Part shown: positions 12,238 through 48,197 of the stretch, piece by piece
How positions within the stretch are numbered: position 1 is the first letter of the stretch
Layout of the letters: each line of letters starts with the position of its first letter
Assembly: GCA_964354545.1 (NCBI GenBank)
Contig: CAYHAE010000005.1
Span: 12,414-76,413, forward strand
Origin: an uncultured Planctomycetia bacterium
GTDB taxonomy: Bacteria > Omnitrophota > Gorgyraeia > 2-01-FULL-45-10 > JAHFGN01
Reading direction: 5' to 3'
DNA: 64,000 bases
Notes under the pieces: generated by a model
What the model saw: only the letters and a program-made list of their open reading frames with translations
Told to the model about the DNA's origin: nothing
Databases searched by the model: none
Program-made: the position numbers and the translations under genes

Positions 12238-12878
12238 AAAAAAAGATTATTCTGGCGGGTGGCGGCGGCCACGCAAAGGTCGTCATAGATGCCATCAATA
12301 AAATGGGAACGTATACGATATGTGGTATCGTCGATATCCGTATGAAAAAAGGGGAACGCGTTTCGGGTGTTCCGGTGGTTGGGGATGACGATGCCTTCAA
12401 GACAATTTTTAAAAAGAAGGTACGTCACGCCTTTATTGGTATCGGCTCGATCGGTAATTGCGACGCGAGGAAGAAGGTATACGGTAATTTGAGGAGTATA
12501 GGTTTTCAGTTGCCCATCATTGCCCATCCGAGCGCGGTGGTCGCTCATGATGTCGAGATAGGTGAAGGGACGTTCATCGCCGCGGGCGCAGTGATAAACC
12601 CGGGCGCAAAAATAGGAAAGAATGCGATAATCAATACCTCGGCATCGATAGATCACGACTGCGTGATCGGGAACTTCGTCCATGTGGCCCCGGGCGCGGT
12701 ATTGAGCGGGGGTGTCACGGTCGGTGATGAAACTCATATCGGAACCGGTGCGAGCGTGATCCAGGGGACCAGCATAGGGAAAAAGTGTTTTATCTCAGCC
12801 GGCATGACCGTATGCGAAGATATGTCGGACGGCGCCAAGCTGTCTCGTCGTTTTAGGCAACCAGATGACAAAGAATAA
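12234..12878 (+). CDS. NeuD/PglD-family sugar N-acetyltransferase (left-handed beta-helix)
   Basis: The N-terminal Rossmann-like segment MKKKIILAGGGGHAKVVID precedes hexapeptide repeats (IGKNAIINTSASIDHDCVIGNFVHVAPGAVLSGGVTVGD). There is an ATGA overlap with the upstream gene. Confidence 0.75.
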   Translation: MKKKIILAGGGGHAKVVIDAINKMGTYTICGIVDIRMKKGERVSGVPVVGDDDAFKTIFKKKVRHAFIGIGSIGNCDARKKVYGNLRSIGFQLPIIAHPSAVVAHDVEIGEGTFIAAGAVINPGAKIGKNAIINTSASIDHDCVIGNFVHVAPGAVLSGGVTVGDETHIGTGASVIQGTSIGKKCFISAGMTVCEDMSDGAKLSRRFRQPDDKE

Positions 12879-15251: not shown

Positions 15252-16388
15252 ATGAGATACTGCAAGAAATGTGTAATGCCCGATACACGGCCCGGCATCA
15301 AATTTGATGAGCAAGGGGTGTGTTATCCGTGTCGCGTAGCGGAACAAAAGAAGAAGGTCGATTGGGATAAGCGTTTTCACGAACTGGAAAAACTATGTGA
15401 TAAATACCGAGGGAAGAAAGGCGACTATTATGATTGCATAGTTACCGTGAGCGGCGGAAAGGATAGCCATTTCCAGGTACATGTGATGAAGGAGCTTATG
15501 AAAATGAACCCGCTCCTCATCAATGTTTCTAATTTCAGCTGGACCGACACGGGTCGCCATAATTTCAACAACTTAAGCGACGTATTTGGGTGCGACATAA
15601 TCTCGGTCAACCTGAACAGAAAGCTTGCAAGGAAGCTTCTGTGGAAGGCCCTCGTAAAGTTAGGATCTCCGACATGGTACTGGGACAAAGCAGTGTATGC
15701 CTTTCCGCTGAGGATGGGGATCGATCTCAAAATCCCGCTCATCGTCTACGGCGAGAATGTCTCATACGAGTACGGCGGTTACCAGATCGAAGAGACTTAC
15801 AGCGCGAAGGACCAGATACATAATGATGTGGTAAAGAAAGTCGACTGGGACTTCTGGCTCGATGAGGACATAACGATGAAGGGCCTCAATGCCGCGGTCT
15901 ATCCGGAAGCAGAAGAGATCGAGAGGGCAGGCCTCGATCCGATGTATCTGGGTTACTTTATGTCATGGGACGGCTACAAGAACATGCAGCTCGCCAAGAA
16001 ATACGGGTTCAAGTCCCTCAACGATACCGGTGAGTGGGATAGAGAAGGATATGTAGAGGACTATGACCAGATAGACTCGATGGGCTACCTTGTCCACCCA
16101 TGGCTGAAATATCCAAAATATGGCCATGCGCGCGCTACAGACGTTGCATGTTATTGGATCAGGACAGGCCGGCTTACGAGGGAAGAGGGTATCAGGCTCG
16201 TTAAAGCGCACGACCATAAGCTTGACAAAAAGGCACTGAAAGACTTCCTGGAGTTCGTTGGCCACAGCGAAAAAGAATTCTGGAAGGTCGTGGATAAGTG
16301 GTATAACAGGGATCTCTTTGAAAAGGTCGATGGTCAGTGGAAGCTGAAAGACCCTATCTATAAGGATCTCGAACAGATATGCGCGTAG
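15252..16388 (+). CDS. N-acetyl sugar amidotransferase (PtmG/WbpG/PseA-like; PP-loop ATPase with N-terminal zinc ribbon)
   Basis: A CxxC...CxxC zinc ribbon (CKKCVMPDTRPGIKFDEQGVCYPC) is present. The PP-loop is TVSGGKDS. The gene is adjacent to nonulosonic acid genes, as in acetamidino-sugar pathways. Confidence 0.8.
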   Translation: MRYCKKCVMPDTRPGIKFDEQGVCYPCRVAEQKKKVDWDKRFHELEKLCDKYRGKKGDYYDCIVTVSGGKDSHFQVHVMKELMKMNPLLINVSNFSWTDTGRHNFNNLSDVFGCDIISVNLNRKLARKLLWKALVKLGSPTWYWDKAVYAFPLRMGIDLKIPLIVYGENVSYEYGGYQIEETYSAKDQIHNDVVKKVDWDFWLDEDITMKGLNAAVYPEAEEIERAGLDPMYLGYFMSWDGYKNMQLAKKYGFKSLNDTGEWDREGYVEDYDQIDSMGYLVHPWLKYPKYGHARATDVACYWIRTGRLTREEGIRLVKAHDHKLDKKALKDFLEFVGHSEKEFWKVVDKWYNRDLFEKVDGQWKLKDPIYKDLEQICA

Positions 16389-16479
16389 AAGTTGTGTATC
16401 GCGGCAGTGCGCGGAGCCGCCAGGACCCGAGAACGAGTATGGTTTCGTATGTGTACTTTTCAGTTCCGGGCGACCCTGA

Positions 16480-17550
16480 ATGGAAAAGATGAAAAAATAT
16501 AGAGTCGGGATCATCGGATGCGGCAGGATGGGCTGGCTATTCAACGAAGATAATCTAGCCGCGCAGCCTATAAGTCATATAGCCGCGTACATGGCCAATG
16601 AGCGATTCGAGGTCGTATCGGTCTGCGATATCGATAGCGCGCGGCTGCGCAGGGTATCGATGAAATACGCCATAAGAAGGGCCTACGCCGATTATACGGA
16701 GATGCTCGCGCGCGAATCGCTTGATATCGTGAGCATTTGTACGCCCACGGCGACCCATTCAACGATCTGTGCGGATGCCGCACGCTCCGGGCTGCGGCTG
16801 ATATTCTGTGAAAAACCGATATCCTCCTCGTTAGAAGAAGCGGATAAGATGATCTCCGTGTGCAAAAGAAATAATGTGCGGCTTGTTATCAACCACACGA
16901 GAAGATGGGATACGAGTTTTTGCGCGGCCAAGAAGCTTCTTGAAAAGGGTGTGATCGGAGCGCCGTCTTTTGCCGCTTCATTTTCACAAGTGGGCCTGCT
17001 TAACGGGGGCACGCATCTTTTCGACTTGCTGAGGAGTTACTTCGGCGATGTCGAGTCGGTTTCCGGCACGATAATCCCTGACGAAAGCACCGATCCGGGC
17101 GGCAGGGGACTTCTTGATTTTGCAGAAGGCCCCGCCTGCTTTGTAGATGCATGTTGGCGCGAGTATGTACTTTTCGGAGTTGATATCTATGGCGACAAGG
17201 GGGTTATACGGGTGGGAGGTCGCGTGAGAAGCCGTGATGTGGTCGGATTGTTTATAGGTAAAAAGAGTAAAAACGAAAGCGGTATAAAAGAATTGGAAGC
17301 AGTGAGCTGTAAAATGCCAAAATGGAAAACGCCGATCCTGTGCGCCGTCGACAATATAGCGGGTAGCCTGCGCCGCAATGAAAAGATCGCGTGTACCGGC
17401 GAGGACGGCAGGGCTGCGCTGGAGATTGCGATGGCTTTTCATGAGTCCTCGCGGCGCAATGGGATCAAAGTTGCGCTACCGTTGAAGCGCAAAAACGTGA
17501 GTATTATACCACGCTACACTTCTTTTACTAGGGATGGCATGCTGAAATGA
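16480..17550 (+). CDS. Gfo/Idh/MocA-family NAD(P)-dependent oxidoreductase
   Basis: The Rossmann motif is YRVGIIGCGRMG. The family motif CEKPISSSLEEADKMISVCKRNNVRLVINHTRRW is present. The likely start is the ATG at 16480 or 16489. Confidence 0.75.
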   Translation: MEKMKKYRVGIIGCGRMGWLFNEDNLAAQPISHIAAYMANERFEVVSVCDIDSARLRRVSMKYAIRRAYADYTEMLARESLDIVSICTPTATHSTICADAARSGLRLIFCEKPISSSLEEADKMISVCKRNNVRLVINHTRRWDTSFCAAKKLLEKGVIGAPSFAASFSQVGLLNGGTHLFDLLRSYFGDVESVSGTIIPDESTDPGGRGLLDFAEGPACFVDACWREYVLFGVDIYGDKGVIRVGGRVRSRDVVGLFIGKKSKNESGIKELEAVSCKMPKWKTPILCAVDNIAGSLRRNEKIACTGEDGRAALEIAMAFHESSRRNGIKVALPLKRKNVSIIPRYTSFTRDGMLK

Positions 17551-18803
17551 GAGAAAAGCTCTTCATTCATGGCGGGCGGAAGGTCCGGTACGAAAATTTC
17601 GATTACCGTGCTCCGATCGGACAGGCCGAGATAAGTTCGGTTACAAGGCTCCTGAGGAAGAAAACGCTTTCGGGATTTTACAAGGATTTCTTAGGCGGTG
17701 AAAATGTGCAGAAGTTCGAGAGTCTTTTTGCAGAATATATCGGAGTAAAAAACGCGATCGCGGTCAATTCGGGGACCTCGGCGCTTCACGTTGCCCTTGC
17801 CGCGGCAGGAGTGGGCCCGGGCGACGAAGTAATAGTGCCGCCGTTTACATTTACTGCGACGGCGTCAGCTGTCTTGATGAATAACGCGATCCCTATTTTT
17901 GTCGACATCGATCCCGATACGTGGTGTATCGATCCCCGCAAGATTAAGCGTGCGCTCAGTAAGAGGACAAAGGCGATAATCCCCGTGCATATCTACGGGA
18001 AGGTCGCCGGGATCGAGGCGATAAAAAGTATCATTGCGGGGCGAGAGATCTCAGTAATAGAAGATGCATGTCAGGCGCCCGGGTGTACTTACCGCGGAAA
18101 GAAGGTCGGATCCATAGGTGACGTCGGGTGCTTCAGTTTTGTTGAAACAAAGAATATGGTGATCGGTGAAGGCGGAATGATCACCACCGATAATGATGAG
18201 ATCGCCTGCAGGTGCCGGCTGATCAGAAACCACGGCGAGGTTTGGACGAAGGACGCGCCGAGAGAATACCTCGCAAATATCCTGGGGTATAACTTCAGGA
18301 TGACTGAGATCGAGGCCGTGATCGGGATCGCGCAGTTGAAGAAACTCGATCGTTTGAATTCCATACGTAAAAGAAACGCCTCTTACCTCGAGGAGGGATT
18401 GAGCGCGTTCGAGGGGATCAGCGCCATGCATTTCGGGAAGAATGAGATCTGTCACCTGTTCCCGCTTTTGTACGACGAGGGGGCGGTCGGCATTTCGAAA
18501 GAAAGATTCATGGAGGTTATGCGGCTTGAGGGAGTTCCTCTTTCGGCAGGCTATCCGCACCCGCTGTACAAAAATCCGATATTTCAAGAGAAGATCGCAT
18601 ACGGTAAGCAAGGCTGCCCCTATACGTGCCATTTTTATGATACTGCTATTGATTATAAAAGAGTAAGGTGCGATGTCGCTGAGGAGGTGTGCCGAAAGCT
18701 CATATGTATAAGGCAGATCCATTATCCATACAGCGTGAAGGATATGGCCGATATCGTGGCGGGGTTCAAAAAAGTGTTCCATAATAGGGGGATGTTCCAA
18801 TGA
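17547..18803 (+). CDS. DegT/DnrJ/EryC1/StrS-family PLP-dependent sugar aminotransferase (second copy)
   Basis: The family signature NSGTSALHVALAAAGVGPGDEVIVPPFTFTATASAV is present. The lysine region is FSFVETKNMVIGEGG. There is an ATGA overlap with the upstream gene. Confidence 0.85.
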   Translation: MREKLFIHGGRKVRYENFDYRAPIGQAEISSVTRLLRKKTLSGFYKDFLGGENVQKFESLFAEYIGVKNAIAVNSGTSALHVALAAAGVGPGDEVIVPPFTFTATASAVLMNNAIPIFVDIDPDTWCIDPRKIKRALSKRTKAIIPVHIYGKVAGIEAIKSIIAGREISVIEDACQAPGCTYRGKKVGSIGDVGCFSFVETKNMVIGEGGMITTDNDEIACRCRLIRNHGEVWTKDAPREYLANILGYNFRMTEIEAVIGIAQLKKLDRLNSIRKRNASYLEEGLSAFEGISAMHFGKNEICHLFPLLYDEGAVGISKERFMEVMRLEGVPLSAGYPHPLYKNPIFQEKIAYGKQGCPYTCHFYDTAIDYKRVRCDVAEEVCRKLICIRQIHYPYSVKDMADIVAGFKKVFHNRGMFQ

Positions 18804-19567
18804 TCCGTTCATTGAATGTTGTTGCAGTGATCCCGGCACGCGGCGGGTCCAAAGGCCTGCCGGGAAAGAACGTGATCGATCTATGCGGTAAGCCCCTGAT
18901 CGCATATACGATAGAGGCGGCGCTCCAAAGCAAGTACATAGACAGGGTGGTCGTATCCACCGATGCGCCTCACATCGCGAAGATCGCCAGGAGATATGGC
19001 GCTGAGGTCCCGTTCTTGAGACCGCGCTCGCTCGCTCTCGATACCGCACATACGCCGCCTGTGATCATTCACGCGATCCGATTCCTTGAAAAACATTCTT
19101 ACGGCGTAGACATCGTCGTTACCTTACAGCCGACCTCTCCCTTAAGAGAATCGAGACAGATCGATCAGGCGATCGAAAGGTTAGTCACGTCAAGGTGCGG
19201 CTCTGTCGCAAGCGCAAAGCCTGCGGAATATCCTCCGTATTGGCTCGTGAAGATCAGGGGCCATAAGGCGATCCCGTTTGTAAACGACGGGGTTAATTAT
19301 TTCAATAAAGAACGTCAACAGTTGCCCAAGACCTATCAGCTTAATGGCGCAATCTATGTTACAAGAAAGAATCGCCTTCTCGAAAGCGGGAATATTATAA
19401 CCGAGCGTTGCGGGATCGTGCTCATGGATGACATAACATCATCGGATATCGACACCTATAGTGATCTTGAAAAGATAGCGGGTATCGTAAAGAAAAGGAG
19501 AAGCCGATATCGCGGGTGTCTGTCCAGAAGATCGGGAACCGGAGGGAAAAGCGCATGGGGAAAATAA
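18800..19567 (+). CDS. neuA: Acylneuraminate cytidylyltransferase-family CMP-nonulosonic acid synthetase (NeuA/LegF-like)
   Basis: The CTP_transf_3 signature VAVIPARGGSKGLPGKNV is present, along with QPTSPLR and YQLNGAIYV motifs. Confidence 0.8.
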   Translation: MIRSLNVVAVIPARGGSKGLPGKNVIDLCGKPLIAYTIEAALQSKYIDRVVVSTDAPHIAKIARRYGAEVPFLRPRSLALDTAHTPPVIIHAIRFLEKHSYGVDIVVTLQPTSPLRESRQIDQAIERLVTSRCGSVASAKPAEYPPYWLVKIRGHKAIPFVNDGVNYFNKERQQLPKTYQLNGAIYVTRKNRLLESGNIITERCGIVLMDDITSSDIDTYSDLEKIAGIVKKRRSRYRGCLSRRSGTGGKSAWGK

Positions 19568-20130
19568 GGAATCCAGGGTACTGCTATTTTTACACCGGAA
19601 AACGTGTCTGTCTGCGCGGCATTGAAAGAGAGGACTACACCGAACGTATGTACAGATGGGCGAACGATCCCGATTTTAATCGTTATCTGAGCTATGGCTC
19701 AAGGCCCCAGACCGCGAGAACGATGGAAAAGCTTTTTGACGACCTTGTGAACAAAGAAAATACGATCTTCGCGATCGACGATAAAAGAACAAGGAAGACA
19801 ATAGGGTTGGTGGGCCTTCATCAGATCAATTGGCCGGCCCGATCAGCAGAATATACGATCCATCTTGGAGAGAAGAGATTCTGGGGGAAAGGCGCGGCCG
19901 CAGAGGCAACCGACCGCATACTTTACTATGCCTTCCACACGCTTAATCTCCATAAGGTCTGGCTAGGTGTCAATGAGGCAAATCGAAGGGCGGTCGCGTT
20001 CTATAAGAAAAAAGGATTCGTGACCGAAGGAAAACTGCGGGATGAGATCTTTCGGGAAAATAGCTACTTTGACTCCATACGGATGAGCATGCTCAAAAAT
20101 GAATATGAGATGCGATACATGAGAAAGTAA
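19555..20130 (+). CDS. GNAT-family N-acetyltransferase (RimL/PseH-like)
   Basis: The GNAT core is LVGLHQINWPARSAEYTIHLGEKRFWGKGAAAEATDRILYYAFHTLNLHKVWLGVNEANRRAVAFYKKKGF. The start was trimmed to the ATG at 19555, after a GGAGGG RBS. Confidence 0.7.
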   Translation: MGKIRNPGYCYFYTGKRVCLRGIEREDYTERMYRWANDPDFNRYLSYGSRPQTARTMEKLFDDLVNKENTIFAIDDKRTRKTIGLVGLHQINWPARSAEYTIHLGEKRFWGKGAAAEATDRILYYAFHTLNLHKVWLGVNEANRRAVAFYKKKGFVTEGKLRDEIFRENSYFDSIRMSMLKNEYEMRYMRK

Positions 20131-20148
20131 CTGCCGGGGGTTTATCCG

Positions 20149-21252
20149 ATGCAAAAAGAGCTCTTGTCACAGATACAGATCCAGCCTACGTTCTCGATAA
20201 AAGAGGCGTTGAAAAGGATTGACGCAACGGGCTTGCGGATATTATTTGTATGCGATAAGGATGGATGCCTAATCGGTTCTCTGAGCGATGGAGATATACG
20301 CCGACGGGTCTTGAAAAAAGGCAGTATGCGTGAAAAAGTCATAAGCTGTTTCAACAGGGACCCTGTCTGCGTCGCGAAGGGCCCCCAGATCCGCGAGGCC
20401 GCTCGAAAAATAATGCTCGAAAAGACCATCGATGTGATCCCGGTCGTGGATACCGGTAAAAGGATCGCGGATGTCATATTATGGCAAGATGTGTTTCAGG
20501 AAGAATGCCGGCATACGAATGAACTCAATGTGCCCGTGGTCATTATGGCGGGCGGGAAGGGCGAGAGGCTCGATCCGTTCACAAGGATCCTGCCAAAACC
20601 CCTCATCCCGGTAGGCGAAAGGCCTATCATAGAAATAATAATCGATAAATTCAGGCAAAAAGGCGTAAACGTTTTCTATATCACGTTAAATTACAAAGGC
20701 AAGATGGTCAAGACGTATTTCGACAGTATAGGAAAGCCTTATATAGTGCGCTACCTCTGGGAAAAGGAGTTTTTGGGGACTGCGGGAAGCCTGAAGCTAT
20801 TGCCGTCGAGTATCGGAGACCCGTTCATCGTCTCCAACTGTGATATTATCGTGAGCGCGGATTATATGGATCTAGTGCGTTTTCATCAAAAACAGAATAA
20901 TATGCTGACCGTCGTAGGCTCTCTTCAGCACTACAAGATACCTTATGGCCTCGTTTATTTTGAAAGGAATGGAAGAATGAGAAGGATCAGAGAAAAACCG
21001 GAATTTGATTTTACGGTAAATACCGGCATGTACGTGGTTTCCAGCAAGGCCTTAGCGTATATCCCCAAGAACAGAAAGTTCGATATGACGGACTTTATAC
21101 AGGACCTCTTGCGCCATAAGCAGAACGTGGGGGTCTACCCCGTGAGCCAGAAATCGTACATCGATGTCGGGCAGTGGGAAGAGTACAGGAATAATACGGG
21201 AGATTGCTTAAAAAATTCCGGCAATGACAACTTCGTCTACAGAACGGGTTAA
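20149..21252 (+). CDS. CBS-domain pair fused to a sugar-phosphate nucleotidyltransferase (PtmE-like GlcN-1-P guanylyltransferase candidate)
   Basis: The N-terminal CBS pair is LFVCDKDGCLIGSLSDGDIRR...DVIPVVD. The NTP_transferase motif is VVIMAGGKGERLDPFTRILPKPLIPVGERPIIE. This architecture matches PtmE of the legionaminic acid pathway. Confidence 0.75.
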   Translation: MQKELLSQIQIQPTFSIKEALKRIDATGLRILFVCDKDGCLIGSLSDGDIRRRVLKKGSMREKVISCFNRDPVCVAKGPQIREAARKIMLEKTIDVIPVVDTGKRIADVILWQDVFQEECRHTNELNVPVVIMAGGKGERLDPFTRILPKPLIPVGERPIIEIIIDKFRQKGVNVFYITLNYKGKMVKTYFDSIGKPYIVRYLWEKEFLGTAGSLKLLPSSIGDPFIVSNCDIIVSADYMDLVRFHQKQNNMLTVVGSLQHYKIPYGLVYFERNGRMRRIREKPEFDFTVNTGMYVVSSKALAYIPKNRKFDMTDFIQDLLRHKQNVGVYPVSQKSYIDVGQWEEYRNNTGDCLKNSGNDNFVYRTG

Positions 21253-21262
21253 AGGGGAGGAT

Positions 21263-22219
21263 ATGGCTAAAACGTGGAATAAGCTGCACCAGATAGTCTG
21301 CTCACGCGATATCGCGGAGGATGCGCGCTATAAGGAATACAGGAAAGCGTGGAGCCACTACTCAGCTGCCCCGGAACTGAGCCCGCGTCCTCTCCACGTG
21401 GATATAGAAATTACCAATGCGTGCAATCTGCGCTGCATCATGTGCGAGAGAAACATCATGAAGCGCGAAGTGGGCTACATGGAGCGCGATCTGTTTTGTT
21501 CGATCATCGACCAATGTGCGCACTATGGTATCTATTCCGTTAAGCTTGGCCTCTGGGGAGAGTCGCTTCTCCACAAGGACTTTTTTGATATGATAAAGTA
21601 CGCAAAAAGCAGGAATATCCATACTCAATTCAATACAAACGCCACTCTCATTACACGTGAAGTCGTCGAGCGGCTCATTGAATCCGGTTTGGATAGAATA
21701 ACCGTTTCCATCGAAAGCGCCTTAAAGGATTCCTACGAAGGCATACGGTGCGGCGCTGAGTTTGATGCGGTCATGAACAATATCAGCGACTTCATTCGCA
21801 TGAAGCCCCTTGGCCGCAAGCCTCTTCTTACGGTCCAGTTCATCAAAATGAAGAAGAATATGGCGCGCATACCCGAATTCGTTGAGATGTTCAAAGACAA
21901 GGTGGATTTCGTATCGGTCACGAATGTAAGCTCTACGTGCGGCGATCCCAAAATATTGAAAGAGTCAACGATTGACTACTCGACTCTCGAAAAGATTCCG
22001 TGCAGCGAAATACGGCTTCGCCTATCCGTTCTGTGGAATGGCGATGTGACGGTCTGCTGCAATGATTTCGATGGTTTTTTGAAGATCGGGAACGTAAAGA
22101 CCGAATCGCTGATGGACTTATGGCATGGCGAAAAGGCGAATGCGATCAGAGAAAAACACACAAGGCGCGATTTCAGCGGGTTGATATGCGATGTCTGCTC
22201 AATAAACCGTAAATTTTAG
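21263..22219 (+). CDS. Radical SAM enzyme with C-terminal Cys-rich SPASM/twitch-like domain
   Basis: The CxxxCxxC motif is ITNACNLRCIMCERN. A C-terminal cysteine cluster (CSEIRL...VCCNDFDG...CDVCS) is present. The start was trimmed to the ATG at 21263, after a GGGGAGG RBS. Confidence 0.7.
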   Translation: MAKTWNKLHQIVCSRDIAEDARYKEYRKAWSHYSAAPELSPRPLHVDIEITNACNLRCIMCERNIMKREVGYMERDLFCSIIDQCAHYGIYSVKLGLWGESLLHKDFFDMIKYAKSRNIHTQFNTNATLITREVVERLIESGLDRITVSIESALKDSYEGIRCGAEFDAVMNNISDFIRMKPLGRKPLLTVQFIKMKKNMARIPEFVEMFKDKVDFVSVTNVSSTCGDPKILKESTIDYSTLEKIPCSEIRLRLSVLWNGDVTVCCNDFDGFLKIGNVKTESLMDLWHGEKANAIREKHTRRDFSGLICDVCSINRKF

Positions 22220-22239
22220 CAAAAGAAAGTCGAAAAAAG

Positions 22240-23298
22240 GTGCTACCTATCACTATGAGAGAATATAATTTCACGCGCGTCGATAATGCCTATAAAGAGT
22301 CGCGCAAGTACAACAAGCCCGGGGCCGTAGCGCCATTCCCGCCTTACTGTACCATACAATTACTGAATACGTGTAATTTCAACTGCGTTATGTGCCACGT
22401 TCCGTATTTCAGAAACGATAAGAAAGAACTGGATTTCGAGCTCTTCAAAAAATGCATCGATGAAATAGCGCGACATGGAAGCCTGGTGCGATTGATCGGA
22501 TACTGCGAACCCCTGCTTTACTCGAGAATAAAAGATGCGGTCCGATATATAAAAAGGAAAAACCTTTTATTGCAGGTCACTACTAACGGCGTTCTTTTAG
22601 ATAGTAAAATGGCGGAAGCGTTTGTCGAGGCGGAAGTCGACAGCGTCATTTTTTCGTTCCAGGGCTTATCGATGGAAGAATACTGTTTTATGAGAAAAGT
22701 TCCCGAGCGCGTCTATGCCAAAGTGCTCGGTAATATCCGGTCTTTGTATAAAAATCGGAAAAAACGCAAGCCTCATATTAAAATAACAACCACTATCACG
22801 AACAGGGACGAACCTTCAGATTCAAAAAAAGATGCGTTTTCAAAAGCGCATAAGGAACATGCGGATGAGATTCAGGTTACCGGCGTCACGAATTTTGCAT
22901 TTCTTGAACAATTGCCCGGCGGAAACAGGATAAGCCGCCGGCTGGGGATCTCGCAGCCAAGAAAGAGAGAAGGGGCGCGGTGCTTTCTTCCTAATTACGA
23001 AATGATCATTAGGCACGAGGGCGATGTATATAGTTGCTGCGGAGCCATTACACGCGACCTCTTATTAGGGAACGCGGCAGAAGAGACCCTGTTAAATCTA
23101 TGGAATAATGAAAAGGCGGCAAGGATAAGAAGAGCTGTTTCGGGCGGCGTACTCGACAACTTTGAAGACTGCAAGGTATGCGCCGTTCGGTATGAAGACG
23201 AGAACATCTCCAGCACGGCGGATATATCCAAATATGATAGGATCTTCTTAAGGGACAGGTCGCTATGCAGGGCATACTGCCAGACGACGAAGGTCTAA
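22240..23298 (+). CDS. Radical SAM enzyme with C-terminal Cys-rich SPASM/twitch-like domain (paralog of 21263..22219)
   Basis: The CxxxCxxC motif is LLNTCNFNCVMCHV. A C-terminal cysteine cluster (CFLPNYEM...YSCCGAITRD...CKVCA) is present. The start is GTG at 22240, or the ATG at 22255. Confidence 0.7.
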   Translation: MLPITMREYNFTRVDNAYKESRKYNKPGAVAPFPPYCTIQLLNTCNFNCVMCHVPYFRNDKKELDFELFKKCIDEIARHGSLVRLIGYCEPLLYSRIKDAVRYIKRKNLLLQVTTNGVLLDSKMAEAFVEAEVDSVIFSFQGLSMEEYCFMRKVPERVYAKVLGNIRSLYKNRKKRKPHIKITTTITNRDEPSDSKKDAFSKAHKEHADEIQVTGVTNFAFLEQLPGGNRISRRLGISQPRKREGARCFLPNYEMIIRHEGDVYSCCGAITRDLLLGNAAEETLLNLWNNEKAARIRRAVSGGVLDNFEDCKVCAVRYEDENISSTADISKYDRIFLRDRSLCRAYCQTTKV

Positions 23299-23308
23299 AG
23301 GGGGACCG

Positions 23309-23845
23309 ATGTTCATCAAGGTGATCCGACGGATTCGTTTCTGGGCCCTGGCCGACAGGATAGGACCCGATATCCCGTGGACCCACTGGAGGCTCCATTT
23401 TAAATCGACGATGCTCGATCTATGCGCATCGAAGTTCAAGCAATTCGATGCGACCGCTGAATTCAGACCGGGCGCCTACGCGATCTTCTGTTCTAAGATC
23501 AGTATCGGGAAGCGTGTGGTCATACGGCCGGGTACTATGCTTTTCGCGGATGATCACGGGGACATTACCGTAGAAGATGACGTCATGATCGGGAGCGCGG
23601 TGCATATGTACACGACGAATCACCGCTTTGACAACGTCAGCATCCCGATCATAGACCAGGGCCATTATGAAGCCGAACCGATAGTTCTCAAGAAAGGGTG
23701 CTGGGTGGGGGCGTGCTGTGTTATTCTGCCGGGCGTAACGGTGGGGGAGAATGCGGTGGTCGGTGCCGGAAGCGTTGTCACGAAAGATGTGCCGCCACGG
23801 GTCCTTGCGGCGGGAAACCCTGCGCGGGTGATACGGAATTTGTGA
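23309..23845 (+). CDS. Hexapeptide-repeat (LbH) acetyltransferase, WbbJ/MAT-like
   Basis: Hexapeptide repeats (ILPGVTVGENAVVGAGSVVTKDVPPRVLAAGNPARVI) and a catalytic His region (HMYTTNHRFD) are present. Confidence 0.75.
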   Translation: MFIKVIRRIRFWALADRIGPDIPWTHWRLHFKSTMLDLCASKFKQFDATAEFRPGAYAIFCSKISIGKRVVIRPGTMLFADDHGDITVEDDVMIGSAVHMYTTNHRFDNVSIPIIDQGHYEAEPIVLKKGCWVGACCVILPGVTVGENAVVGAGSVVTKDVPPRVLAAGNPARVIRNL

Positions 23846-23859
23846 TCTTTAGGAGGGAC

Positions 23860-25716
23860 ATGCTCAGTTTCGATCTGTCGGAAATGAGGCGAGCGGACGG
23901 CTCGGTCTTGTATTGGGAAGCCGAGGCCGAAGCATCCCGGCACGCCCTGAAGGTGGCGGATCGGGTTGCCGTGACGGCGCCGTTCAGGGAGCTGTTGAGG
24001 AGGCTCCCGAGCAAGCGCCTGCTCCTCTATTGTCAGTATGCGGTCAAAGAGGAGATCTACCCATTCGTGCGCCAGGCATGCGTCATCCGCTGGTACCGCG
24101 ATAACGGCAGGGCGATCCCTTCAGGCGATGATGTGGTCCCTGTCCCGCGAAAGGGCTTGTGCGCCGCTCTTGAGGACTGCTGGGAGTTCGATGGCATCCC
24201 GCTCAGGAAGATGAGCCCCTTCGAGTTCGTCTTTAGGCGGGAGGCGCGTTCGCCCGGGCAGGCGATACGTCAGGCCTTGAAACCTCCCGTCAAGGCGTTC
24301 CTGCGGTTTATCCAAGAACTGCGCAGAGACCAGGTTCCGGGGGAGGCGCAGGGGCACAGCGGAACGATCGCATGTCATTACGTCGAAGGTGTCGACCCCT
24401 CCCGTCGGAACGATCTCAGTTGGTTTGCGGGTAGCGGTCTCGAGCCCGAGCAGGTTCTCATCTATTTCGACAGCCGTGACAACAAGACCGGCCGCCCCAT
24501 ACCACGAAAAATCATTCGTGATATAGAGGAACGCGGGTTTCGCTGGGTCGCGCTGCTTCCAGGGGTTGTCGAGGAGCAAGGCATGCGATATTGGAACGCT
24601 CCCCGGGTGCCCGCACACGAGTTCCTCTCGAAACGACTCGCCGGGAGCGATGTGGAGCGGTGGGCCGTTGAGATGGGAAACCATGCGATCGAACAGGTAT
24701 TCTATTGGCGATCATTCCACAGGGCGTTTGGCGTGAAGGTGCACTATATCCCCGAAGAAGGGTTTGCGAAGAACATTGCCCAGGCCATCGCGTTCGATGC
24801 GGAGGGCACCCGCGCGGGGGTCCTTGTCGGAAGACAGAGGTCGGAGATCTCGGCTCCTCTTGGATGCTGCATCGGCTTCCAACCGAAGCATGTCTACTTC
24901 GTCTGGAGCAGGAGGTATGATCTCAAACTCCTACACGACGACCACGACCGGATCGAGGCGCTCGTCGTCTCAGGGTATCCGTATTGCACCTCGCTTTCAT
25001 ACGAGGACAGGGTCGGCGCATTGCGTCGCAAAGGGGTTACATTTGTGGTCGCGCTCTTCGATGAGGGGCATGGTCCGCACACCTTTTCATCCTCGAAGAA
25101 TATCGAGCGGCTCTACCGGGCGTTCCTTCAGTGGGTCGTTGATGATCCGGAGGTCGGGCTCATTATCAAATCTAAGAAACCTTCGGTGATCAAGGGGCTA
25201 CCCGCGCTACATCCGCTTCTCGATCGCGCGGTCGCGACCGGCCGCTGCGTGAGGCCTGCCAGAGAATGGGGGATGTTTCCCGCCGAGGCATCGAAAGGTG
25301 CCGACATGGCGGTCGGCGTCGATATTGCGACCGCAGTGGTAGAAGCGGTCCTCAATGGCTGCCGGGGGGTCTGCTTCGATGCGGCAGCCGCGCCCGATCA
25401 TCAGTTTTATCAGTGGGGCCGGGTCATATATGCCTCGCTTGAGGAGATGGTCGCGGCGATGAAACGTTTCAAGGCGGACACCTCGAGCGAGCCCTCGCTC
25501 GGTGATTGGTCGGCGCATCTCAATGAGCTCGACCCGTTCCGCGATGGACAGGGAGGGGCGCGGATGGGAAGCTACATGCGATGGCTGCTCGAGTCGTTCA
25601 ATGACGGGAAATCACGCGAAGAAGCTATCCGTTTCGCGAACGGATCGTACGCCGCGCAGTGGGGCGCGGATAAGGTGATCATGATGGATGATGAATGCGT
25701 GCGCAATGCGCTTTAG
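23860..25716 (+). CDS. Large hypothetical protein (618 aa), no confident family assignment
   Basis: The long ORF was trimmed from 23698 to the ATG at 23860, which is preceded by AGGAGG and separated from the upstream stop by 14 bp. There are no motifs I can assign. It may be distantly related to the other two large unknowns (35946, 46166). Confidence 0.5.
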   Translation: MLSFDLSEMRRADGSVLYWEAEAEASRHALKVADRVAVTAPFRELLRRLPSKRLLLYCQYAVKEEIYPFVRQACVIRWYRDNGRAIPSGDDVVPVPRKGLCAALEDCWEFDGIPLRKMSPFEFVFRREARSPGQAIRQALKPPVKAFLRFIQELRRDQVPGEAQGHSGTIACHYVEGVDPSRRNDLSWFAGSGLEPEQVLIYFDSRDNKTGRPIPRKIIRDIEERGFRWVALLPGVVEEQGMRYWNAPRVPAHEFLSKRLAGSDVERWAVEMGNHAIEQVFYWRSFHRAFGVKVHYIPEEGFAKNIAQAIAFDAEGTRAGVLVGRQRSEISAPLGCCIGFQPKHVYFVWSRRYDLKLLHDDHDRIEALVVSGYPYCTSLSYEDRVGALRRKGVTFVVALFDEGHGPHTFSSSKNIERLYRAFLQWVVDDPEVGLIIKSKKPSVIKGLPALHPLLDRAVATGRCVRPAREWGMFPAEASKGADMAVGVDIATAVVEAVLNGCRGVCFDAAAAPDHQFYQWGRVIYASLEEMVAAMKRFKADTSSEPSLGDWSAHLNELDPFRDGQGGARMGSYMRWLLESFNDGKSREEAIRFANGSYAAQWGADKVIMMDDECVRNAL

Positions 25717-25795
25717 AAGCGCACTTGTGCAGTGAGCATAGCGTTTAGGGGATGCCAGGCACCGGCGGACCCCGCGATATGAGGGATAGGACGAA

Positions 25796-27220
25796 ATGAA
25801 ACAGTATGACAGCAAGAAGTTTACGGTCTTTTGTCTGATGATATTCGGCCGGTCAGGCTCGAAGTTCTTTCAGGGGATCCTGGATTGGCATCCTCAGATA
25901 ATATCGTTTCCCAGGAACCTCCACTTCAATAGTTTCTGGCAGAAGGTGGAGAGGCGCAAAGACGATGTCGCCTACGTGGTCGACACCTTTATCGAAGATC
26001 ATCCGCGCGCATTTTCAGGCGCGCTCTGGTATCTCTTCAATAAATATGACAGGGCAGATGAGCTTGGCACCAAGAGAGACGAGACCTTTTCGGTCGACAT
26101 GAACGCGTTCCGGCGGAATGCGCTCGAACTCCTGCAGGGTAAAGAGATGAACAGGAGAGAGGCGTTCGTCGGGCTTCACCTTGCGTACCATGCGGCGAGC
26201 GGAAGGGAACTCGCCGATAACTCGATCATCTTCTGCCACATCCACGCGATCCGGCATATAGACGAATTGAGAGCGGTCGCAGAGGATTTTCCCGACACGA
26301 GGGTCTTGATACGGACGCGGCATCCGATCGAACGCCTAAAATCCTGCGCGGCGTGGATGAAGATGCAGAACGTCTATTCCTGCGGCCAGCCGTACGAAGA
26401 GGAGATCGAAGACCTCGAGGGGACCGAGCCGATCAGGGTCCTCTTTCCCGCGCTTGATATGCGCGTCCTCACCTTTGAGCAGCTCCACTGGCATCATCGG
26501 GAGGCGATGGAGGCGTTCGTGCGCTGGGTGGGTATAGAGTGGAACGAGAGCTTGATGGTGAGCACGATCCACGGAAAGCTCTGGTGGGGGGATAGCAAAG
26601 TGTTGCGCCACGGGTCCAATCCAAAGTGGAGGCTCTATAAGCCGAAAGGATTTCTGGAGAAGAAGGATTGGCGCGTCCTCCTTGCCCTTAACGGCGAGCG
26701 GCTGAAGCAGTATGGTTATGCGAGCGCGGAAGAGGTGCGCATGGCGAGGCTGGGGCGGCTCACGCTCCTCGGGGCCCTGCTTCTTCCCACGAAATATGAA
26801 TGGACGACGCTGAAGACGATGTTCAGTCTGAGCCATTGGTGGACGGCAGTCCGCACCATCATCGACGATACCACCTCCGAGAGGAGAAGAGGTTTTGACT
26901 TTTATACCAAGAAACGGGTGAAACATCGCGATGAGGTGCTTTTGGGTATACCGGTATCGGGGATCGCGGCCGGCTATCGCGTAGCGCGGCAATTAGTGCG
27001 GCACATCTGGCTGCTCAATCCTCTCAAATGGGTCTGGTTCTGTATGAAGCGCGTCGTCATGTATTGGCAGTACGCCGAAGGGCATAGGAAGAGAAGAGAG
27101 ATCTTGCTGCCTCTGCTTCTGGAGAAGACCGCTCCTCCGGCGGCGGGCAGCGCTCCCTGCGAGAACCGGACGGGAGATCTCACAAGAGATGTTCAGCGTC
27201 TCTTAAGCGGTCGAACGTGA
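25796..27220 (+). CDS. Candidate PAPS-dependent sulfotransferase (Sulfotransfer_3-like N-domain) with C-terminal extension
   Basis: A 5'-PSB-like P-loop (FTVFCLMIFGRSGSKFFQGILDWHPQIISFP) is present. A 3'-PB-like R-x(n)-S motif (LIRTRHPIERLKS) is present. The gene sits about 16 kb downstream of cysC-sat-cysQ in the same cluster. Confidence 0.6.
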   Translation: MKQYDSKKFTVFCLMIFGRSGSKFFQGILDWHPQIISFPRNLHFNSFWQKVERRKDDVAYVVDTFIEDHPRAFSGALWYLFNKYDRADELGTKRDETFSVDMNAFRRNALELLQGKEMNRREAFVGLHLAYHAASGRELADNSIIFCHIHAIRHIDELRAVAEDFPDTRVLIRTRHPIERLKSCAAWMKMQNVYSCGQPYEEEIEDLEGTEPIRVLFPALDMRVLTFEQLHWHHREAMEAFVRWVGIEWNESLMVSTIHGKLWWGDSKVLRHGSNPKWRLYKPKGFLEKKDWRVLLALNGERLKQYGYASAEEVRMARLGRLTLLGALLLPTKYEWTTLKTMFSLSHWWTAVRTIIDDTTSERRRGFDFYTKKRVKHRDEVLLGIPVSGIAAGYRVARQLVRHIWLLNPLKWVWFCMKRVVMYWQYAEGHRKRREILLPLLLEKTAPPAAGSAPCENRTGDLTRDVQRLLSGRT

Positions 27221-27257
27221 TACGTAAAATCAAGAAGGATATCGCCGGCCACGAGCT

Positions 27258-27346
27258 TAGTCCCCTCCGCAGAAACCATCGGGCTTTAGCCCGAGGATTG
27301 GATTCCGTTATAACGGAATCCATGCGTTTCTGCTTCGGGGAGGGAG
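27258..27346. repeat. MITE/REP-like intergenic element, copy B
   Basis: TAGTCCCCTCCGCAGAAA is followed by the hairpin ATCGGGCTTTAGCCCGAGGAT and an internal palindrome GGATTCCGTTATAACGGAATCC. The element ends in the inverted terminus TTTCTGCTTCGGGGAGGGAG. The termini are shared with copies at 7292 and 61629. Confidence 0.5.
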
Positions 27347-27524
27347 CCTTAATGAAAAGCTCGCATGCTGATGGGGATATTTCCCCAAAGAAAAAAGGTG
27401 CCCCGGCCTTTAGGCCGGGGGGCTCCACAGATAGTGATTATTATTCAAATGCTCCTTTTCTATCGGTATTCGAGTGAGGAGCATCGCGGGGTTAAGACCG
27501 TACGGTTATGAACGAGGTATACCA

Positions 27525-28739
27525 ATGGCACACAGGACCACACGACGTCGGAAGCAGGCGCCCTTAAACATCCTCGTCATCGGCATGGGGATGTACGTAT
27601 GCGGCAGAGGAACGGAAACCCATGGAACGATCATGCCGGCCATTTACGAGTGGAGGAAGAAGAATGAGTTGGGAGAAGTATATGTTGCCGGGACGGGCCC
27701 TGAGGGAATAAGTATTGCGAAAGCAAAAATAGACGAGATTGAGCGCAATACGGGAGTTCATGTTCCGCTCACGTTTTATCCCGAAGGGGAGCTCTACGAT
27801 CTTCAGTGTTATAGAAGGGCTATCCGCACGATACCGAAACCGGCGTGCGCGATCGTCGTGGTGCCCGATAATTACCACAGAGAGGTAGCAGGTGAAGCGA
27901 TTGAGGGCGGGCTCCACACGCTTGTGGTGAAGCCTCTTGCGCCGACCCTCAAAGAGGTGTACGAATTGATCGAGTTGCAGCGAAAGAAGCGCGTATACTG
28001 CGCGGTTGAATTTCACAAACGTTTCGACCACGCGAATCTGAAGCTCAAGGATTCTCTGCGTGAGGGGGTTATCGGAGATCCCCTCTACTTTCTCGTGGAG
28101 TTCAGTCAGCGGAAGAGTGTCCCCGCTGAACGTTTCAGAAAATGGGTCGAGGCAACAAATATCTTTCAGTATCTCGGAATTCACTATGTCGATATTATCT
28201 ATTTTGCAACAGGTGCGAGGCCGGTCCGCGCAATGGCATTGGGGCAACGGGGGTGGCTCTATTCAAGGGGCATCGATACCTATGATTCGATAGAGGCCAT
28301 CATTGAATGGGAGATGCCCGGCGGTCAAAGATTCACTTCTTCGATCCTTACTAACTGGATCGATCCGGAGTCAACTTCTGCGATGTCCGATCAGAAGATA
28401 AAGGTAATAGGGACGAAAGGGAGGTTTGAGTCCGACCAGAAGCGGCGCGGGGTCATGATCGTGAGCGACGAGAGGGGGATAAAAGAGCCAAATCCGTATT
28501 TTTCGGCTTCATACGGCACTCCCCCTATGGTTTCATATCATGGGTATGGGATCGAAAGCATACACCAGTTCCTGAAAGACGTTATCGATATCGAGTCGGG
28601 GATTGTGACGATAGATGCGCTCGAAGATAAAAGGCCTACGTTTGCGCAGTCGATCGTGCCCACCGCAGTTATCGAGAGCGTCAATAAGAGTCTCAAGGAC
28701 GGAGGGCAATGGATAGCCATTCAAGAAGTGGAAAAGTGA
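27525..28739 (+). CDS. Gfo/Idh/MocA-like oxidoreductase (predicted dehydrogenase)
   Basis: The N-terminal dinucleotide-binding-like segment is NILVIGMGMYVCGRG. The family motif EGGLHTLVVKPLAPTLKEVYELIELQRKKRVYCAVEFHKRFD is present. The start was trimmed to the ATG at 27525, after a GAGG RBS. Confidence 0.55.
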   Translation: MAHRTTRRRKQAPLNILVIGMGMYVCGRGTETHGTIMPAIYEWRKKNELGEVYVAGTGPEGISIAKAKIDEIERNTGVHVPLTFYPEGELYDLQCYRRAIRTIPKPACAIVVVPDNYHREVAGEAIEGGLHTLVVKPLAPTLKEVYELIELQRKKRVYCAVEFHKRFDHANLKLKDSLREGVIGDPLYFLVEFSQRKSVPAERFRKWVEATNIFQYLGIHYVDIIYFATGARPVRAMALGQRGWLYSRGIDTYDSIEAIIEWEMPGGQRFTSSILTNWIDPESTSAMSDQKIKVIGTKGRFESDQKRRGVMIVSDERGIKEPNPYFSASYGTPPMVSYHGYGIESIHQFLKDVIDIESGIVTIDALEDKRPTFAQSIVPTAVIESVNKSLKDGGQWIAIQEVEK

Positions 28740-29935
28740 CGGCGAAGGAGCTTCGCGTAGAGGCCGGGGTCCTCGAGCGCTTCATAACGCGCGTGCTGCG
28801 AAAAGAGGGCGTTCGTGCTGACGTCGCGAGATATGTCGAAGAAGGGCTCGTGCAGACTTCGTTGAGAGGCGTCGATTCGCACGGCGTGCGTCTTTTTCCC
28901 CATTATATTGCCGAACTCAAGGGCGGACGGGTCAACCCTGATCCGGAATATAGGTTCCGTAAAACATCATATTCAACCGGAATACTTGATGCTGATCATA
29001 CCTTTGGGCATGCGGCAGGCATGGAGGCCGCGAAGCGCGCGATCGGCCTCGCACGTAAGGCAGGGACAGGTCACGTTGCGGTATGCAACTCAAATCACTT
29101 TGGCGCAGCTGCCTGCTATGCGCTGGAGATCGCGCGGCATGACATGATCGGCATGAGTTTCACGAACACCGATGCCCTGGTAAAGACCTACGCGGGGAAA
29201 AGGCCGTTTATGGGGAATAACCCGATATGTTTCGCCGCACCCTGCAAAGGCGAGGAACCTTTTTGTCTCGATATGGCAACGAGCGTCACCACCTTCAACA
29301 GGATCAGGCAGCTGAGGGATGAGAGACGGCCTGCGCCGGAAGGGGTCGGGGCAAATCGGGAAGGCATTGAAACAACCAACCCGGATGATATCACCATGCT
29401 TTTGCCGATCGGAGGCTATAAGGGGTACGGCCTCAGCATGGCCGTTGAGGTCCTGTGCAGTCTTCTCACCGGGATGCCCTATGGACCGCATATCCCCAAG
29501 ATGTTCGAGGCGCCCATGAGCGCACATAGATTTCTCGGGCATTTCGTCATTGCGATGAGGATCGACCGGTTCCACGATAAAGAGGCGTTCAAGGAGCGGC
29601 TTTCGCAGATGGTGCATGAATTGAGGAGTGAGCCGCGCCTGGATAAGAGGACACCCGTACAGGTAGCGGGTGATCCTGAAAAGAGGAGCGCTGTCGAGAG
29701 GAAGAAAAAAGGGATCCCTTTTACCCTGCGGGAGTTCAAGGCATTCAAGGAGTTGAGCCGTGAATACGGAGTCGGATTTGACCTGCGCCCCGGACCCGCG
29801 TTGCGTTCCGCTTCACGGGATGGCGTGGGTTCCCTGCCTGGACGCCGGGGGAGGCGCTCTATGGAGCCCGAAGAGGGAAATCGCGGCCGTAAGATCACGG
29901 AGCTTCATCTTATGCGCGCGAGAGGTAATCGATGA
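28709..29935 (+). CDS. Ldh_2-family (malate/L-lactate/sulfolactate dehydrogenase family 2) NAD(P)H-dependent oxidoreductase
   Basis: The Ldh_2 signature is RGVDSHGVRLFPHYIAELKGGRVNP...HFGAAACYA. A GGAGGG RBS precedes the ATG at 28709; an alternative GTG is at 28736. The C-terminal 50 aa are an Arg/Gly-rich low-complexity tail. Confidence 0.65.
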   Translation: MDSHSRSGKVTAKELRVEAGVLERFITRVLRKEGVRADVARYVEEGLVQTSLRGVDSHGVRLFPHYIAELKGGRVNPDPEYRFRKTSYSTGILDADHTFGHAAGMEAAKRAIGLARKAGTGHVAVCNSNHFGAAACYALEIARHDMIGMSFTNTDALVKTYAGKRPFMGNNPICFAAPCKGEEPFCLDMATSVTTFNRIRQLRDERRPAPEGVGANREGIETTNPDDITMLLPIGGYKGYGLSMAVEVLCSLLTGMPYGPHIPKMFEAPMSAHRFLGHFVIAMRIDRFHDKEAFKERLSQMVHELRSEPRLDKRTPVQVAGDPEKRSAVERKKKGIPFTLREFKAFKELSREYGVGFDLRPGPALRSASRDGVGSLPGRRGRRSMEPEEGNRGRKITELHLMRARGNR

Positions 29936-41963: not shown

Positions 41964-41979
41964 ACGATCGAGGTCATGT

Positions 41980-43047: not shown

Positions 43048-43048
43048 A

Positions 43049-48163: not shown

Positions 48164-48197
48164 ACTTTTCCGATCGAACGGCCTTAAGGACACACGA

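Follow-up and report, generated by a model that had tools for sequence, protein, structure and literature searches.

What do two adjacent radical S-adenosylmethionine (SAM) genes contribute to a gene cluster for a nonulosonic acid? The question is raised by a 64-kilobase (kb) stretch of DNA from an uncultured Planctomycetia bacterium (GTDB lineage Omnitrophota; contig CAYHAE010000005.1), in which the genes here called rSAM1 and rSAM2 lie among genes for legionaminic acid synthesis. The whole stretch of 64,000 nucleotides is referred to below as the window. With high confidence, both products are twitch radical SAM enzymes that resemble BtrN. Since this BtrN-like pair and its relatives sit inside legionaminic-acid-type clusters, the locus suggests that such clusters include a tailoring step by radical chemistry that has yet to be described.

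The two radical SAM proteins and their auxiliary cluster

The two genes and the predicted class of their products are as follows.
21263-22219, + strand: rSAM1, predicted BtrN-like twitch radical SAM enzyme, 318 residues
22255-23298, + strand: rSAM2, second predicted BtrN-like twitch radical SAM enzyme, 347 residues

Both proteins belong to the radical SAM superfamily, as they carry the CX3CX2C motif and a Radical_SAM core (PF04055; E 1.9e-17 for rSAM1 and 2.7e-18 for rSAM2), followed by a match to the Pfam SPASM model (E 1.5e-12 and 2.5e-11, respectively); all of these matches lie above the curated cut-offs. A first-pass annotation of this DNA had described the two open reading frames, their N-terminal motifs NACNLRCIMC and NTCNFNCVMC, and their position between a PtmE-like gene (20149-21252) and an acetyltransferase gene (23309-23845), and it was accurate in each respect. 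The sequences of rSAM1 and rSAM2 are identical to the database proteins P0001 and P0121. The element GGGGAGGA upstream of the rSAM1 ATG is read as a Shine-Dalgarno sequence, and the gaps upstream of, between, and downstream of the two genes measure about 10, 35, and 10 nucleotides (nt).

The description of the genes as tandem paralogs was right about their adjacency and wrong about close relatedness. Since the proteins share 26% identity and each retrieves its own set of orthologues from the databases (133 matches for rSAM1 and 32 for rSAM2), they are, to judge by sequence, distant and ancient paralogues from two families, and a recent tandem duplication is excluded on that basis.

The cysteine residues of both proteins were compared across their relatives. 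In rSAM1, the SAM cluster is assigned to C54, C58, and C61, and the candidate ligands of an auxiliary cluster are C247, C265, C309, and C312; when 40 sequences of the rSAM1 family were aligned, all seven were invariant. The corresponding residues of rSAM2 (numbered on the 347-residue protein) are C40, C44, and C47 for the SAM cluster and C243, C261, C306, and C309 for the auxiliary cluster. This pattern of three plus four cysteines is kept in 98-100% of 150 aligned relatives and recurs in 131 further representatives of clusters formed at 50% identity. The C-terminal cysteines noticed in the first reading therefore proved to be conserved, with four ligand candidates kept in the alignments. The motif of a full SPASM domain, CX2CX5CX3C, occurs in none of the relatives (0/152 and 0/131), and both proteins end soon after the final CxxC. 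Two more cysteines in the tail of rSAM2, C338 and C342, occur in the window protein alone and are not conserved; the predicted local distance difference test score (pLDDT) of this segment is below 50, and the C-terminal tail as a whole (approximately residues 330-347) is not conserved. Because there are four conserved C-terminal cysteines and no motif for a second cluster, both proteins are assigned by sequence to the twitch class, with one predicted auxiliary [4Fe-4S] cluster. Of the earlier label "SPASM/twitch", the second half stands and the first does not.

A fifth cysteine lies beside the second auxiliary ligand in both families. In rSAM1 it is C266, nearly invariant in the 40-sequence alignment and part of a CCxD motif with the conserved D268, and in rSAM2 it is C262. 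It is found in 93/120 and 28/30 aligned relatives, in 115/132 cluster representatives, and in every relative down to approximately 37% identity. Distant members, among them a fusion to NeuB, have serine, alanine, or other residues in its place, and since it is replaced in this way, the fifth cysteine is not a ligand.

Both families were also searched against solved structures. When single proteins were compared with the sequences in the PDB, BtrN came first and BlsE second for both rSAM1 and rSAM2. Profile searches were run with the 40-sequence rSAM1-family alignment (A1) and with an rSAM2-family alignment (A3). BtrN was the best PDB match of both families (E 8e-28 with A1 and 3.6e-25 with A3), with weaker matches to BlsE (E approximately 1e-14 and 6e-15), CteB (5wgg; E 3e-15 with A3), MoaA (E 2e-12 and 9e-7), SkfB (E approximately 3e-12 and 3.5e-11), DesII (E 5e-9 and 5e-12), and PqqE (E 1.6e-9 and 1.4e-7). 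BtrN was also the sole match to span the C-terminal domain as well as the core, and the C-terminal domain of rSAM1 on its own (78 residues) retrieves only BtrN from the PDB. In the alignment, the four conserved C-terminal cysteines fall on C169, C187, C232, and C235 of BtrN (chain numbering), which we take to be the ligands of its auxiliary cluster. No NCBIfam model reaches its cut-off for either protein.

Predicted structures gave the same nearest relative. The AlphaFold2 (AF2) models have a pLDDT of 94.3 and a predicted template modelling score (pTM) of 0.92 for rSAM1, and 89.2 and 0.88 for rSAM2. With Foldseek, the top PDB match of both models is 4m7t (BtrN with SAM and substrate; E 2e-15 and 2e-14), for which the template modelling (TM) scores are 0.73 and 0.75 when normalised to the target and only 0.54-0.57 when normalised to the query. 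BtrN is therefore the closest relative of solved structure for rSAM1 and rSAM2, in sequence and in fold, and of the two precedents for sugar chemistry named in the first-pass annotation, BtrN was aptly chosen and DesII is a much weaker relative. Other traits of the BtrN family, namely a core abridged to β5/α4 and a length near 250 residues, are not found in these proteins of 318 and 347 residues, and the 2-deoxystreptamine aminoglycoside context typical of BtrN is likewise absent from the legionaminic acid and surface glycan cluster in which the pair lies.

Association with nonulosonate genes

Loci of relatives were collected from species-representative genomes, from metagenomes, and through look-ups of exact proteins, and were compared by tblastn with the proteins of the window. 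A 14-sequence alignment (A2) was used for the locus scan, as the 40-sequence alignment was too diverse. Genes termed rSAM1-type encode proteins at least 42% identical to rSAM1. All seven distinct loci with usable flanks (7/7) place an rSAM1-type gene inside a cluster of NeuB, LegB, LegC, LegG, PtmE, or CTP_transf_3 genes; a 3.7 kb contig and a Hadarchaeota locus with the gene at the contig end (L010) stand outside this count. In one Omnitrophota metagenome-assembled genome (MAG; L001/L002/L006), the order LegB-LegC-LegH-NeuB-LegG-GFO-DegT-CTP-GNAT-PtmE-rSAM1 matches that of the window, and the proteins are 45-65% identical. The closest syntenic locus, a Logan metagenome contig (L039), is collinear across both radical SAM genes and the module downstream of them. 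Further rSAM1-type loci come from a second Omnitrophota MAG (L004), from Planctomycetia (L005), Proteobacteria (L007), and Thermodesulfobacteriota (L009), and a Hadesarchaea contig (L057) carries the gene between CTP_transf_3 and NeuB. In most of the orthologous loci, as in the window, a PtmE-like gene lies directly upstream of rSAM1.

The second family has a similar setting. In 11 of 12 loci, rSAM2-type genes adjoin PtmE, CTP_transf_3, LegG, NeuB, or WbuX, the exception being a 1.6 kb contig. The two families also occur apart, with rSAM1 alone in L001 and L005 and rSAM2 alone in L040 and L049. Among Verrucomicrobiota members at about 30% identity, pairs of radical SAM genes are again found beside NeuB (L012, L013, and L020). 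Across bacterial phyla and archaea, each of the two families is specifically linked to genes of nonulosonate biosynthesis; no such link to sulfatases or to peptides is seen.

Gene fusions are a further source of information on the pathway in which these enzymes take part. In P0153 (706 residues, found on more than 24 contigs), a NeuB-SAF protein is fused to a radical SAM-twitch unit, and its cluster holds CTP_transf_3 and a Maf-type (MptE-like) gene. Additional fusions among the top profile matches are P0231 (CTP_transf_3::rSAM), P0244 (Hexapep::rSAM), and P0250 (FkbM::rSAM). The partners are thus a synthase, an activating enzyme, and two typical tailoring enzymes of sugar hydroxyls, and all four types are encoded in the window cluster. 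A profile of the rSAM1 orthologues retrieves 5,358 representatives of 50%-identity clusters at E<=1e-30, of which more than 150 are full-length matches at E<=1e-64.

The loci of P0153 (L042-L044) also contain, beside the fusion, a 550-residue CTP_transf_3 protein, an AMP-binding enzyme, an Antibiotic_NAT acetyltransferase, and the MptE/Maf-like gene. A 77-residue open reading frame next to the AMP-binding enzyme is possibly a carrier protein, and the whole resembles an island of the flagellin-glycosylation type in which the nonulosonate is acylated.

The window itself is, over its whole length, a glycan supercluster on the + strand. The genes around the pair are as follows.
10062-11138, + strand: LegB-like 4,6-dehydratase
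11053-12237, + strand: LegC-like aminotransferase
12201-12878, + strand: PglD/LegH-like N-acetyltransferase
12865-13887, + strand: NeuB/LegI synthase
13884-15053, + strand: LegG-like hydrolysing 2-epimerase
15252-16388, + strand: WbuX-type amidotransferase
16480-17550, + strand: PtmF-like GFO/IDH/MocA oxidoreductase
17547-18803, + strand: second DegT aminotransferase
18800-19567, + strand: LegF/PseF-like cytidine monophosphate (CMP)-transferase
19516-20130, + strand: PseH-like GNAT
20149-21252, + strand: PtmE-like protein with CBS and sugar-1-phosphate nucleotidyltransferase domains, directly upstream of rSAM1
23309-23845, + strand: hexapeptide (Maa/LacA/WcaF-type) O-acetyltransferase, directly downstream of rSAM2
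23857-25716, + strand: unknown protein of about 620 residues, with no Pfam or NCBIfam match
25796-27220, + strand: sulfotransferase (Sulfotransfer_3)
from 27474, + strand: GFO-like
from 28709, + strand: Ldh_2
29932-31635, + strand: B12-binding radical SAM
from 31632, + strand: GDSL
from 32687, + strand: CTP_transf_3
from 33574, + strand: GT2::CTP_transf_3
from 34674, + strand: FkbM methyltransferase, in the downstream block 23857-35927

The legionaminic acid core is complete (10062-15053), so the first reading was also correct that the pair is embedded among nonulosonic acid genes, here of legionaminic acid type. The block that follows (15252-20130) keeps its synteny with rSAM1 in other phyla, and the downstream block (23857-35927), with tailoring genes and a second set of CMP-sugar genes, is co-conserved in L039, L040, and L004. 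In Leg clusters that have been characterised, the oxidoreductase PtmF, PtmE, and LegF are regularly found as canonical neighbours (PMC4481668). Because each canonical role (LegB, C, H, G, I, and F, PtmE, and PtmF) is filled by another gene, the radical SAM pair is left, according to these sequence-based assignments, as extras.

Several other features of the window deserve mention. G+C content is 0.49 in the block 15252-23845 (0.48 in rSAM1 and 0.46 in rSAM2) compared with 0.54 in the whole window, and this block may have arrived by horizontal transfer as a cassette of tailoring genes. Genes for the synthesis of 3'-phosphoadenosine 5'-phosphosulfate (PAPS), namely adenosine 5'-phosphosulfate (APS) kinase and ATP sulfurylase, lie at 7534-10156, and two CysQ/inositol-monophosphatase-like genes also belong to the PAPS supply; together with the Sulfotransfer_3 protein, these genes fall in the regions 7534-10156, 25796-27220, and 45391-46176. 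Genes for ATP sulfurylase, APS kinase, or sulfotransferase are found near radical SAM genes in L040, L001, L005, and L050 as well. PAPS supply together with a sulfotransferase suggests a sulfated glycan that contains nonulosonate.

The twitch pair is accompanied by five B12-binding radical SAM genes (262-1761, 2393-3940, 29932-31635, 48018-49706, and 54593-56011; mutual identity 22-31%), so that the 64 kb hold seven radical SAM genes in all; this could mean that the glycans are extensively C-methylated or otherwise tailored by radical chemistry. The module of GFO-like, Ldh_2, B12-binding radical SAM, (GDSL), CTP_transf_3, and GT2::CTP_transf_3 genes (27474-34941) recurs at 55-75% identity in L004, L039, and L040 and looks like a second, undescribed pathway to a CMP-activated sugar that is tied to the Leg cluster. 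At 39806-45398, an HpcH/HpaI aldolase, CTP_transf_3, a hexapeptide transferase, a GFO oxidoreductase, an SIS isomerase, a methyltransferase, and a D-2-hydroxyacid dehydrogenase may encode the route to yet another CMP-activated ulosonic acid, the third, which an aldolase and not NeuB would form. Three proteins of about 620-670 residues (23857-25716, 35946-37850, and 46166-48163) have no Pfam or NCBIfam match and no detected similarity to one another, and are candidate glycosyltransferases or polymerases. Weak tblastn matches to the first of them (24-43% identity) lie beside rSAM2 in L039, and matches are also found in L040 and L004.

Proposed reaction and competing explanations

We propose, with a probability of roughly 0.6, that rSAM1 and rSAM2 tailor a nonulosonate or its immediate precursors through hydrogen abstraction at a sugar carbon. 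They would work independently of each other, each tailoring the nonulosonic acid of legionaminic acid type that the surrounding genes provide; domain architecture, conservation of the ligands, nearest solved homologue, cluster association, and fusions are observed, whereas substrate, stage, and outcome are what we infer. The [4Fe-4S] cluster on the CX3CX2C motif would cleave SAM reductively to yield a 5'-deoxyadenosyl radical, and this radical would take a hydrogen atom from the sugar, in all likelihood at a carbinol carbon of the nonulosonate such as C4 or C8. The reaction would fall between condensation by NeuB and CMP activation, or just past activation; a stage after condensation and around CMP activation is suggested because the fusions to NeuB and to the CMP-transferase bracket the free nonulosonate. 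The two enzymes would differ in the position attacked or in substrate, since each is found without the other in other clusters.

Two routes may lead on from the substrate radical. It could be quenched from the opposite face by C266 of rSAM1 or C262 of rSAM2 to give an epimer, the outcome known from HygY and NeoN, or it could be deprotonated and pass an electron to the auxiliary cluster to give a ketone, as in BtrN. By analogy with the epimerases, C266 and C262 are candidate hydrogen donors or catalytic residues, and their conservation slightly favours epimerisation by the window enzymes; that they are epimerases acting through this cysteine is nevertheless somewhat doubtful. C4 and C8 are the sole carbinol carbons of legionaminic acid and the sites of its known natural epimers, and it is speculation that one enzyme serves each of them. 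We suggest only tentatively that rSAM1 and rSAM2 are the first members to be recognised of a large and so far uncharacterised family that edits nonulosonic acids after NeuB, for example as radical epimerases or dehydrogenases specific for C4 and C8. If this is true, legionaminic acid would be converted to stereoisomers or to keto or amino derivatives by a route unrelated to the NAD-dependent ones at the nucleotide-hexose level, and uncatalogued nonulosonate structures would be expected on Omnitrophota, Planctomycetota, Hadesarchaea, and other uncultured phyla.

Several observations weigh against tailoring of a nonulosonate by BtrN-like chemistry. The Hadarchaeota locus L010 has nothing recognisable, and no Leg genes, in the 8.8 kb upstream. 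A Nitrospinae member (P0067 in L058), which is 35% identical, lies among two GT9 heptosyltransferases, LpxK, and Wzy_C. No Leg genes are seen near many of the relatives at 21-30% identity, so the association weakens with distance, and all homologues found come from uncultured MAGs or metagenomes. With regard to the enzymes themselves, the models of rSAM1 and rSAM2 have six predicted core strands compared with the abridged fold of BtrN, to which they are 16-18% identical. The choice between epimerase and dehydrogenase hangs on a single conserved cysteine and on an analogy with HygY, NeoN, and anSME. Finally, the tight linkage to PtmE could equally indicate a nucleotide-hexose substrate. As an observation in its own right, the Nitrospinae locus suggests that some family members tailor sugars of the lipopolysaccharide core (3-deoxy-D-manno-octulosonic acid or heptose) and not nonulosonates.

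The linkage to PtmE leads to the first alternative, in which the pair acts earlier, on a nucleotide-linked hexose (an intermediate derived from guanosine diphosphate (GDP)-linked glucosamine or N-acetylglucosamine) that is altered before NeuB. The chemistry would be a deamination or dehydration like that of DesII or AprD4, or a BtrN-like oxidation that feeds the second DegT aminotransferase and the GNAT. We regard this as unlikely. The position of rSAM1 directly after PtmE and the PtmF-like/DegT/GNAT block in four phyla fits it, as do the partnership of BtrN with a DegT-family aminotransferase in the butirosin pathway and the detectable relationship to DesII and BlsE. However, the fusions join NeuB and the CMP-transferase, not PtmE, LegB, or LegC; the Hadesarchaea gene is flanked by CTP_transf_3 and NeuB, and the 12 kb covered there contain neither LegB nor LegC; the DegT gene is already paired with a canonical NAD-dependent GFO/PtmF-like gene; and the similarity to DesII is about 15-20 orders of magnitude below that to BtrN. 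A specific form of this idea, in which DegT, GNAT, and rSAM1 form an oxidise-then-aminate module like BtrN/BtrS, was rejected, as DegT has its GFO partner and rSAM1 occurs without these genes in L004 and L057.

It is less probable still that the target is something other than the sugar skeleton, such as a substituent that the nonulosonate carries (N-acyl or O-linked), or else a cofactor or a residue in an adjacent enzyme for which the pair would serve as maturases. The best NCBIfam matches are indeed of maturase type (TIGR04317 at 132.8 and 109.3 bits; spiro-SPASM), and the cluster has several unknown proteins of 620-670 residues and many acyl-modifying genes. Every NCBIfam match, however, is far below its cut-off (380 bits for TIGR04317, of which only the N-terminal half is aligned), the only conserved partners are NeuB, PtmE, and CTP_transf_3, and the unknown protein of about 620 residues is absent from several rSAM1 loci (L001 and L005). 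A tungsten-cofactor maturase, the function to which TIGR04317 refers, was rejected on the same distance from the cut-off.

Maturases of peptides made by ribosomes and modified after translation (RiPPs) that have come to lie in a glycan cluster by chance can be set aside with considerable assurance. In favour, SuiB, SkfB, CteB, and PqqE are among the weaker structural and sequence matches, but the context effectively refutes this identity: the gaps around the two genes are too small for a precursor gene, the approximately 44 (rSAM1) and 30 (rSAM2) residues before the core do not amount to a domain the size of a RiPP recognition element (RRE), the sugar-cluster context is conserved across phyla and domains, the fusion partners are sugar enzymes, and all NCBIfam RiPP-maturase matches are far below their cut-offs.

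Least credible of all, and effectively refuted, is the suggestion in the first-pass annotation that the pair are anSME-type maturases that make formylglycine from cysteine or serine in a sulfatase: despite similarity at superfamily level (Foldseek E approximately 1e-11) and the sulfur-metabolism genes in the window, the profile match to anSME (E 3e-4 and 1e-5, compared with 8e-28 and 3.6e-25 for BtrN) leaves the C-terminal domain uncovered, the anSME model is outside the top 25 NCBIfam matches of either protein, there is one set of auxiliary ligands here compared with two clusters in anSME, and no sulfatase domain was found in any window open reading frame of at least 150 residues or in the annotated related loci. 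The sulfation genes that had been taken as a hint of sulfatase maturation are unrelated to it, as APS kinase, ATP sulfurylase, and sulfotransferase serve PAPS synthesis and the addition of sulfate.

Comparison with known systems

BtrN (2-deoxy-scyllo-inosamine dehydrogenase of butirosin synthesis; PDB 4M7T/4M7S) is the nearest solved enzyme for both families. Like the window proteins, it combines CX3CX2C with a twitch domain, its four ligands correspond to theirs one to one, and its substrate is small and carbohydrate-like rather than a peptide, as proposed here. The window proteins differ from BtrN in being 70-100 residues longer, with an N-terminal extension in addition to the six predicted strands and low identity mentioned above. 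They have a conserved cysteine after the second ligand, where BtrN, a dehydrogenase, has Phe188, and they belong to a cell-surface nonulosonate cluster, whereas BtrN belongs to a 2-deoxystreptamine aminoglycoside cluster.

HygY (hygromycin B) and NeoN (neomycin) are twitch sugar epimerases in which a non-ligand cysteine returns the hydrogen atom, and they become dehydrogenases when this residue is missing. The window families carry a conserved non-ligand cysteine (C266/C262), which distant members have lost and for which the catalytic cysteines C183 of HygY and C249 of NeoN may be counterparts. The substrates of HygY and NeoN, by contrast, are aminoglycoside pseudo-oligosaccharides. The NeoN residue, C249, is cited in PMC10991966.

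The same order of domains, a radical SAM core followed by a cysteine-rich Fe-S domain, is seen in anSME (PDB 4K36-4K39), which differs in its full SPASM domain with two auxiliary clusters, in its protein substrate, and in matching the two families in the core only. It carries out an oxidation after hydrogen abstraction, and its catalytic Asp277 presumably follows the second Aux-I ligand, at the position of the extra cysteine of rSAM1 and rSAM2. BtrN, HygY, NeoN, and anSME share the abstraction of hydrogen from a carbon that bears a heteroatom, followed by oxidation or by epimerisation through cysteine. BlsE (cytosylglucuronate decarboxylase) and DesII (thymidine diphosphate (TDP)-4-amino-4,6-dideoxyglucose deaminase) are radical SAM enzymes acting on nucleotide or nucleoside sugars and are detectable by profile, with matches limited to the N-terminal core.

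In immune evasion, phage recognition, and flagellar assembly, nonulosonic acids (sialic, legionaminic, and pseudaminic acids) are key determinants at the cell surface. The canonical CMP-legionaminic acid pathway of Campylobacter, Plesiomonas, and Vibrio is reproduced gene for gene around the pair, and we know of no radical SAM enzyme in that pathway as described. To our knowledge, the described routes to nonulosonate diversity all depend on NAD, pyridoxal phosphate (PLP), or acyl-coenzyme A (CoA) and act on nucleotide-hexose precursors, and the few carbohydrate-acting twitch enzymes that have been characterised all come from antibiotic pathways. No paper that ties radical SAM enzymes to nonulosonic acids was retrieved in a literature search, and where such enzymes appeared in the same text as legionaminic or pseudaminic acid, the mention was incidental. 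In Campylobacter fetus subsp. testudinum, phase-variable radical SAM genes of the MoaA/NifB/PqqE/SkfB family, with no function given, are listed among genes for methyltransferases, short-chain dehydrogenases/reductases (SDR), and formyltransferases (PMC6321876).

Set beside these systems, the pair is of a known kind, the twitch radical SAM enzymes, and functionally new, as it belongs to a pathway from which no enzyme of that sort has been described. It would give a context and candidate substrates to a twitch family (over 5,000 of the 50%-identity clusters match its profile at E<=1e-30) that is without functional annotation. If a radical SAM step does go with NeuB and the CMP-transferase, unactivated carbons would become open to chemistry once the nine-carbon skeleton is in place, and new stereoisomers or derivatives of these sugars would be predicted.

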